Below, in pieces: positions 20,183-20,491 of a stretch of DNA of 64,000 nucleotides. Within the stretch, counting starts at the first letter, position 1. Each line of letters starts with the position of its first letter. The translations under genes were made by a program, and so were the position numbers. Below the pieces are notes generated by a model that was not told the origin of the DNA, did not search any database, and was given only the letters and a program-made list of their open reading frames with translations. Source of the stretch: Deltaproteobacteria bacterium (GTDB taxonomy: Bacteria; Desulfobacterota; Deferrisomatia; Deferrisomatales; BM512); contig PKTT01000031.1 in NCBI GenBank assembly GCA_002869015.1, positions 95-64,094 of the forward strand, written 5' to 3'.

Positions 20183-20491
20183 ATGATTGAGATTACAAAA
20201 ATCGCCGAAGAGAAGCTCTTCGAGGCGATAAAGGACAACGGCGACGCATTGACCGTCCGCCTCTATCAGGCTGGAGTAGGCTGAGGCGGCCCCTCTTGGG
20301 GAATGGCTCTGGATGAGTCAAAAGACACCGACACAACCCTCACGCTGGATAACTTCACCCTAACCGCCGACTCCGAGCTGCTTAAAAGCTCAGGCGGCGT
20401 AAAAGTAGACTACTCAGACGGCCCCTTCAGAAAGGGGTTCATAATAAAGTCACTTACCCAGCAGGAATGCGGCTCCGGCTGTAGCTGCTGA
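20183..20491 (+). CDS. HesB/IscA/ErpA-like A-type Fe-S carrier with an in-frame TGA at codon 34 (20282..20284); probable selenoprotein
   Basis: The ORF track reports only the distal 62 aa (20303..20491). Hand reading from the ATG at 20183 (GGAAGGA Shine-Dalgarno upstream) gives MIEITKIAEEKLFEAIKDNGDALTVRLYQAGVG-TGA-GGPSWGMALDE...QQECGSGCSC in a single frame. VRLYQAGVG[U]GGPSWGMALDE aligns with ErpA [9 protein letters not shown][C][11 protein letters not shown]. The C-terminal CGSGC matches the carrier CGCG motif. Confidence 0.7.

Follow-up and report, generated by a model that had tools for sequence, protein, structure and literature searches.

Does the UGA triplet at codon 34 of a short reading frame in an uncultured deltaproteobacterium end a peptide, or does it encode selenocysteine (Sec)? 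The frame lies on contig PKTT01000031.1 of a Deltaproteobacteria bacterium assembly (GCA_002869015.1; Desulfobacterota, BM512), of which we analyzed a stretch of 64,000 nucleotides (positions 95 to 64,094, forward strand; hereafter the window, whose own coordinates are used throughout). From the ATG at 20183 the translation crosses the TGA and reaches a stop at 20489-20491, giving 102 residues. The mechanical list of open reading frames (ORFs) contains only a 62-residue ORF at 20303..20491 for this locus, and the public record annotates the 62-residue piece alone, as 'hypothetical protein C0608_06405'. A first-pass annotation of the window had proposed that the UGA is a Sec codon missed by the ORF caller. 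Its description of the frame, with an ATG at 20183 behind GGAAGGA, a TGA at codon 34, continuation in the same frame and a total of 102 residues, agreed in every part with sequence and translation. The Sec reading itself is strongly supported by a conserved TGA with Sec/Cys alternation, purifying selection upstream of it, the footprint of a selenocysteine insertion sequence (SECIS) and a known family, and the locus appears to be a new, mis-annotated member of the HesB-like selenoproteins. Very probably, one monocistronic gene at 20183-20491 encodes a HesB/IscA-like selenoprotein of 102 residues, with the hairpin at 20305-20319 as its bacterial SECIS (bSECIS).

Relationship to HesB-like selenoproteins and A-type carriers

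The HesB-like selenoprotein family has been known since about 2004, and it reportedly featured in the selenoproteome surveys of Kryukov, Zhang and Gladyshev. By 2006 it comprised 11 members, many of them from Deltaproteobacteria, with two Sec-to-Cys conversions; the hosts included Syntrophobacter, Syntrophus, Desulfovibrio, Geobacter sulfurreducens and Desulfuromonas (PMC1794560). A 2026 review lists the family with the motif UxGP and the model TIGR01911 (PMC13188914), and mutagenesis and 75Se labelling showed the HesB-like protein of Methanococcus maripaludis to be a selenoprotein (PMC11097638). The precedent cited in the first-pass annotation, HesB-like selenoproteins with Sec/Cys alternation at this site, is thus on record (PMC1794560, PMC13188914 and the model NF038090). 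Like the window's protein, these selenoproteins have about 100 residues, the IscA/HesB fold signature, Sec in place of the first ligand Cys and the UxGP motif; their SECIS lies inside the coding sequence just downstream of the Sec codon, they have Cys homologues, and they are common in anaerobic Deltaproteobacteria.

Family searches were run on the translation with the TGA read as Cys; Pfam returned no match. The best match in NCBIfam was NF038090 ('IscA_HesB_Se'), which covered residues 1-102 with 81.2 bits (E=5.6e-23), followed in the ranking by TIGR00049, TIGR01911 ('HesB_rel_seleno'), ErpA, SufA and IscA. TIGR00049 (E=7e-11, 42.3 bits against a cutoff of 58.8) and ErpA (E=5e-10), both matching over residues 2-101, fell below their curated cutoffs. 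NF038090 was also the best match of all 36 family representatives, with core members scoring 117-147 bits, whereas the clade of the window ('YQAGVG-U-GGPSWGMALDE') lies at the edge of this model and, for the window's protein, well under the cutoff of TIGR01911: scores in the clade were 73.1, 75.4, 81.2 (the window), 88.6 and 89.0, and 84.2 for a Cys-type sequence, around a cutoff of 85. By these matches, the gene is a predicted peripheral member of the curated NF038090 family. Such peripheral scores are probably the reason why pipelines fail to rescue the gene, and a protein below the TIGR01911 cutoff would not be named by them automatically.

Alignment to proteins of solved structure placed the TGA on a ligand position. 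In a pairwise alignment to H. influenzae HI1723 (PDB 2apn; E=1.6e-5), the TGA fell on the Cys of GGGCSG and the C-terminal CGSGCS stood opposite STCGCGSS. The TGA column also coincided with the GGGCSG Cys of AQ_1857 and E. coli IscA, and the C-terminal cluster with the CGCG tail in both HI1723 and AQ_1857. With a profile built from 36 family members, matches extended from end to end of all solved A-type carriers (1nwb, 2apn, 1s98, 1r94, 1x0g and 2d2a; E between 1.2e-16 and 2e-7), and the Sec column again fell on the first Cys. Both alignments agree with the first-pass claim that the stop sits exactly on the first cluster-ligand Cys, and the one to HI1723 with its matching of the C-terminal ECGSGC to the carrier CGCG motif. 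Its label of a 'catalytic' Cys has to be dropped, since in A-type carriers the residue binds the cluster or iron.

Homology to IscA, SufA and ErpA is therefore collinear over the full length, with equivalent ligand columns (the first Cys and the C-terminal C-x-C). The differences are that ligand 1 is Cys in these carriers and Sec in the window, that GCSGFQY is replaced by G-U-G-G-P-S-W and C-G-C-G by C-G-S-G-C-S-C, and that the window's gene stands alone, outside any isc or suf operon, with scores below the thresholds of their models. Instead of the three Cys of the canonical C-x(~60)-C-x-C pattern, the protein would have Sec as ligand 1 together with C100-S-C102 and C96; family alignments show little or no variation at C96 and C100. 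The ligand geometry thus appears to be kept with a different chemistry at ligand 1, which would make the protein a Sec variant and not a canonical A-type member.

The tail itself varies among Sec-type relatives. A single cysteine was present in the tail of L028, L030, L032, L035 and L056 (...FSGTCSI) and of L022 and L052 (...GGCS), so that not all members can form the canonical three-ligand site. At another related locus (L011:3001-3300), the frame ends with ...NVPSAC followed by TGA, and its closest relative (L006) goes on as ...SACGSGCSC; in L011 the Cys tail may be truncated, the TGA may be a second recoded codon, or the assembly may be wrong here.

Conservation of the TGA and of the codons before it

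Related loci were collected from the genomic loci of close database proteins and from scans of one-genome-per-species contigs and metagenome contigs, with peptide patterns that included ALDE. The contig scans contributed 88 further loci, 87 of which were relatives of the HesB-like family. Counts refer to 92 motif-bearing loci, to 75 distinct Sec-type sequences and, for terminal stops, to 78 distinct Sec-type genes.

The nearest database proteins all had 60-64 residues, and at their loci the gene calls consisted of a 33-residue piece, an 18-nt gap and the 60-64-residue piece. When translated across the gap, every close orthologue showed the same 33 codons, the TGA and a continuation in frame. 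The TGA column, for which the first-pass annotation had suggested a family alignment, contained TGA at 88 of the 92 loci and TGC at the other four; in the window's own clade, TGA was found in the window and in 10 other Sec-type loci. Both this count and the recurrence of the whole arrangement in every close orthologue place the TGA beyond chance. The TGC loci were L013, L019 and L020 (one sequence, from a Myxococcales metagenome-assembled genome, MAG) and L037, so the contrast between Cys-type and Sec-type involves two distinct Cys-type sequences only; these read continuously through the column. All 75 distinct Sec-type sequences used TGA as the internal stop, and the terminal stops of the 78 distinct Sec-type genes were mixed (TGA 36, TAA 23 and TAG 19). 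The motif U-[GSA]-G-P was present in all 75 relatives, with G-U-G-G-P in the window.

The 33 codons upstream of the TGA had a synonymous divergence (pS) of 0.50-0.87 and a non-synonymous divergence (pN) of 0.03-0.43, with the same direction in all 21 pairwise comparisons, and synonymous differences were saturated; between L001 and L003, for example, 15.5 synonymous and 2.5 non-synonymous differences were counted. Of 89 Sec-type loci, 81 had a tetramer resembling a Shine-Dalgarno sequence 4-18 nt before the corresponding start. These codons therefore evolve as protein under purifying selection. The excess of pS over pN together with the conserved Shine-Dalgarno sequence argues both against a pseudogene and against a short gene starting at 20303.

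A candidate SECIS in the coding sequence

In the bSECIS model, an apical loop of 3-9 nt rests on an upper stem of 4-16 bp, a G at loop position 1 or 2 is usually followed by G or U, the spacing is 16-37 nt, and the minimum free energy is -7.5 kcal/mol or lower; elements of different genes are generally dissimilar (PMC13188914). The hairpin GGCUC-UGGAU-GAGUC begins 20 nt downstream of the UGA and has three of these four features. Its loop of 5 nt closes a stem of 5 bp, or 6 bp when U20304-A20320 is counted; the loop reads U-G-G-A-Y in 75 of 75 sequences, with G at position 2 and a further G after it; and 25 nt separate UGA and loop (20285-20309). A small hairpin within the ORF, with a 5-nt loop and G at position 2, is also what the bacterial consensus describes (bSECISearch; E. 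coli fdhF-type). The HesB-like element differs from that consensus in that its 15-nt core is invariant in sequence, although the proteins outside the window's clade are only about 35-45% identical to that of the window.

The core UGGCUCUGGAYGAG was recorded as invariant in 75 of 75 distinct Sec-type sequences, apart from an exception at Glu+11 in one of them (L027, below). It lies over codons M41-A-L-D-E-S46, and thus over the ATG chosen as start by gene callers, and occurs once in the 64-kb window. Codon usage was frozen along with the residues: Ala+8 was GCU in 75 of 75, Leu+9 CUG in 75 of 75 and Glu+11 GAG in 74 of 75 sequences, corresponding to 0-0.1 bit of synonymous entropy, and neighbouring residues that are equally invariant (Gly-1, Gly+2, Pro+3 and Asp+16) had 1.0-1.55 bits. 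In both Cys-type homologues Ala+8 was encoded by GCC, so that the U-A pair is lost, and one of the two also had CUC at Leu+9. The RNAalifold consensus contained one helix only, GGCUC/GAG(C/U)C with the loop UGGAY. This comparison identifies the hairpin at 20305-20319 as the putative bacterial SECIS of the gene. It is the comparison across sequences, and not the folding of a single one, that decides which hairpin matters. Folding of the single sequence around the UGA, a check suggested in the first-pass annotation, was uninformative (z = -0.8 and 0.0), and it was comparative folding that gave the SECIS.

The hairpin that the first-pass annotation had pointed to, with some doubt of its own, is CCCC-UCUU-GGGG. 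It does exist, at 20290-20301, but a role as SECIS was rejected in favour of the conserved element. With a loop that lacks G and a distance of only 9 nt to the UGA, it misses two bSECIS features; its pairs can form in 36-74 of the 75 sequences (the closing pair in 36); and it forms in the Cys-type L013 too, because it is dictated by the G-P-S-W-G codons.

Two relatives deviate around the core. The Cys-type sequence of the Myxococcales MAG (L013:3097-3140, identical in L019 and L020) matches the SECIS core at 14 of 15 nt (GGCCCUGGAUGAGCC); at the remaining position, U is changed to C and one pair is disrupted. The sequence resembles the outcome of a fairly recent switch from Sec to Cys, an event reported for the HesB-like family. 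L027 is the sole Sec-type sequence with GAA for GAG at Glu+11, about 33 nt past the UGA, followed by Ala instead of Pro or Ser; its hairpin could still form with a bulged A.

Evidence against Sec insertion and alternative explanations

Several observations weigh against a HesB-like selenoprotein at this locus. With regard to family, the protein scores 3.8 bits under the NF038090 cutoff, which is an operational threshold and no biological feature; it reaches 40.1 bits in TIGR01911 against a cutoff of 66.35, and it has no match to Pfam PF01521 at E<=1, a domain that matches 32 of the 36 family representatives. As for the hairpin, the isolated 17-20 nt (the window's G-U variant) fold at -6.5 to -7.3 kcal/mol, short of the -7.5 of the model; the 48-59 nt region after the UGA gives -15.9 to -17.6 kcal/mol, the energy depending on the segment folded. 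In the window's sequence, an alternative fold topped by CCCC-UCUU-GGGG competes with it. The stem is invariant and so offers no compensatory covariation, its sole change, from G-C to G-U in 12 of 75 sequences, affecting one side only. No SECIS model of Rfam matched, either at the gathering threshold in the whole window or at E<=10 in 20150-20550, where only weak, terminator-driven matches were returned. Since ALDE was part of the search patterns, amino-acid conservation of this motif is partly ascertainment, from which synonymous-site conservation should be free if the back-translated patterns were fully degenerate. Finally, no selA, selB, selD or tRNA-Sec gene was detected in the window or at contig positions 5,804-81,933 (about 76 kb), as searched by an NCBIfam scan of 29 further window ORFs, by Pfam on the contig flanks and by ARAGORN on the window; ARAGORN also found no tRNA-Sec at 60 related loci. 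We therefore assume a Sec-decoding trait for this MAG, as suggested by the gene's own signals and by family precedent.

The alternative that survives best is that near-cognate read-through or local suppression puts a standard amino acid (Cys, Trp or Gly) at UGA-34, with no Sec involved. The lack of Sec machinery on the examined part of the contig would fit, and Cys at this column is functional in homologues. We nevertheless regard it as very unlikely: UGA ends nine of the 38 long frames in the window as well as the gene itself, so it has not been reassigned; the frozen hairpin, with three of the four bSECIS features, stands at the right distance in all 75 sequences of Sec type, and Cys-type sequences disrupt it; and HesB-like proteins are a documented selenoprotein family.

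Only slightly less credible is a relic, a gene that stops at codon 34 and is non-functional since its lineage lately lost the Sec trait. Loss of selenoproteins and of the Sec trait is frequent and extends to HesB-like proteins (PMC1794560), and again the Sec machinery of the MAG was seen nowhere in the part of the contig examined. However, the frame, the TGA, the Shine-Dalgarno sequence, the SECIS and the Cys tail are intact in another MAG (L009), whose copy is 96% identical, and in more distant orthologues; differences are mostly synonymous, with no frameshifts or extra stops, and the ORF at 20183-20491 likewise has no frameshift and no stop other than the TGA at codon 34.

A genuine 62-residue gene that begins with ATG 20303, alone or preceded by a distinct gene for a 33-residue peptide, is what gene callers return in every assembly, and 68 of 75 sequences have AUG or UUG at codon 41. 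The remaining seven have CUG there, though, and there is no Shine-Dalgarno sequence before 20303 and a good one before 20183. Once joined, the two pieces match A-type carriers over their whole length and place the stop at the ligand Cys, and Cys-type homologues read through without a break. Given the mixed terminal stops, TGA in 75 of 75 sequences does not fit an ordinary stop. We thus give a short gene little more than a nominal chance, in line with the first-pass annotation, which had argued against a simple short gene from 20303 since no function-compatible N-terminus follows that ATG. That annotation had also held that lack of a SECIS-like structure and of protein-level conservation upstream would point to a pseudogene or a truly short ORF; what we found was a frozen hairpin and conserved codons. 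The last alternative, a pseudogene or an assembly error that turned TGC or TGT into TGA in this MAG, is effectively refuted: the codon is one base from Cys and coverage is modest (cov 6.6 in the contig name), but the same TGA occurs at 88 independent loci from many samples and assemblers.

Proposed decoding and significance

For the HesB-like selenoprotein that we favour, the established bacterial mechanism suggests the following course. A ribosome arriving at UGA-34 would have the hairpin GGCUC-UGGAU-GAGUC downstream as bacterial SECIS, which would bind SelB-GTP-Sec-tRNA(Sec), and Sec would be delivered in place of termination by a release factor. Translation would go on to the UGA at 20489-20491, behind which there is an intrinsic terminator but no SECIS-like element. 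From homology, the product is expected to have the A-type Fe-S carrier fold, with Sec34 as the first cluster or iron ligand and the others supplied by the C96/C100/C102 tail. Most likely, it would bind or transfer iron or an Fe-S cluster through this Se/S ligand set.

The invariance of the SECIS core could mean that it is doubly constrained, the RNA signal and the A-L-D-E peptide motif being locked together, or that it is a specific sequence recognized by SelB. Taken jointly, the ideas that the 'GPSWG' clade around and below the curated cutoffs is a functionally distinct subfamily of Sec carriers, or that the SECIS core is more than a generic hairpin, are doubtful.

The main consequence is for annotation. 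Gene callers take UGA-34 as a stop and so split the gene in two, and at least dozens of public relatives recorded as a 33-residue and a 60-64-residue 'hypothetical protein' would really be one selenoprotein of about 100 residues. Restoring them should improve selenoproteome counts for uncultured Deltaproteobacteria, and the frozen 15-nt core GGCUCUGGAYGAGYC offers a simple and specific key with which to search metagenomes for further members. The family is of interest in that a selenolate would replace a thiolate as Fe or Fe-S ligand; on its function, this locus brings no new information.

Gene neighbourhood and other features of the window

The features of the locus are listed in Table 1. The predicted selenoprotein gene stands alone, divergent from pckA (18362-19975, minus strand) across a gap of 207 nt and convergent with tex (20548-22968, minus strand). 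Neighbouring genes vary among orthologues, so that the gene is part of neither a conserved operon nor an isc or suf cluster. The terminator was absent from the output of the consensus scanner and was seen by RNAfold and by reading the sequence.

Table 1. Positions of the predicted gene, its signals and nearby elements in the window
Feature	Position	Strand	Description	Basis
Predicted HesB/IscA-like selenoprotein gene, full length	20183..20491	+	102 codons (M1...U34...C102) and UGA terminator	Translation; NF038090 match 1-102; orthologue architecture
Shine-Dalgarno GGAAGGA	20170..20176	+	6-nt spacer to ATG 20183-20185	Sequence reading
Predicted Sec codon UGA, residue 34	20282..20284	+	In G-U-G-G-P (UxGP)	Aligned on first ligand Cys of A-type carriers
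C-terminal cysteine cluster C96-G-S-G-C100-S-C102	20468..20488	+	Counterpart of C-x-C ligand pair in A-type carriers	
Ordinary UGA terminator	20489..20491	+		Terminal stops of Sec-type genes mixed
Putative SECIS core hairpin GGCUC-UGGAU-GAGUC	20304..20320	+	Stem 20305-20309/20315-20319 plus U20304-A20320; loop 20310-20314	
CCCC-UCUU-GGGG hairpin	20290..20301	+	-7.7 kcal/mol; present in the window, not a conserved SECIS	
Candidate sigma-70-like promoter TTGATA-17-TACACT	20101..20129	+	9/12 matches; weak	Consensus scan; 1 site vs 0.6 expected in shuffles
Intrinsic terminator	20519..20544	+	GGGACGCC-UUUG-GGCGUCCC then U6	RNAfold -24.8 kcal/mol (20512-20552)

At the 3' end of the gene, the Rfam model PrrB_RsmZ matched positions 20420-20545 on the plus strand, over the terminator as well (22.7 bits against a gathering threshold of 44; E=0.0026). 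This match is probably driven by the terminator hairpin.

No second selenoprotein gene was found by the NCBIfam scan of window ORFs, by Pfam on the contig flanks or by a screen of the window for TGA-joined frames. The screen returned 151 pairs, mostly spurious. One candidate, at 1..1725 on the minus strand, was rejected as two adjacent genes, SRAP and PAP2, that share a frame across a TGA. In the same region, an SRAP/YedK-like gene (922-1629, minus strand) lies next to divergent umuD-umuC (1729-2379 and 2343-3668), and this cluster (1-3668) looks like a translesion module of the SOS type. An Rnf/Nqr-like operon at 28094-32019 on the minus strand encodes an RnfD/NqrB-like protein, FMN_bind, two Rnf-Nqr subunits and an NqrF-like Fer2-FAD-NAD protein. 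Upstream of it there is no RnfC/NqrA-like gene but a thioesterase-like (32006-32434) and a flavodoxin-like ORF (32524-33096); a recoded gene in this gap was considered and rejected, as the gap is filled by ordinary small genes.

A block of a methyltransferase (Dimerisation/Methyltransf_2-like), small ORFs and an RdgC-like gene occurs in the window (34384-37032, minus strand) and at L003:3242-5635. It adjoins hesB in L003 and L004 and lies 14 kb from it in the window, the blocks being matched by family names only. A desulforedoxin-like protein (Desulfoferrod_N) is encoded at 22855-23160 on the plus strand, and a gene with a Desulfoferrodox domain lies on the contig to the left of the window (L097:6096-6452). 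Both point to an anaerobic lifestyle, as would fit Deltaproteobacteria rich in selenoproteins.

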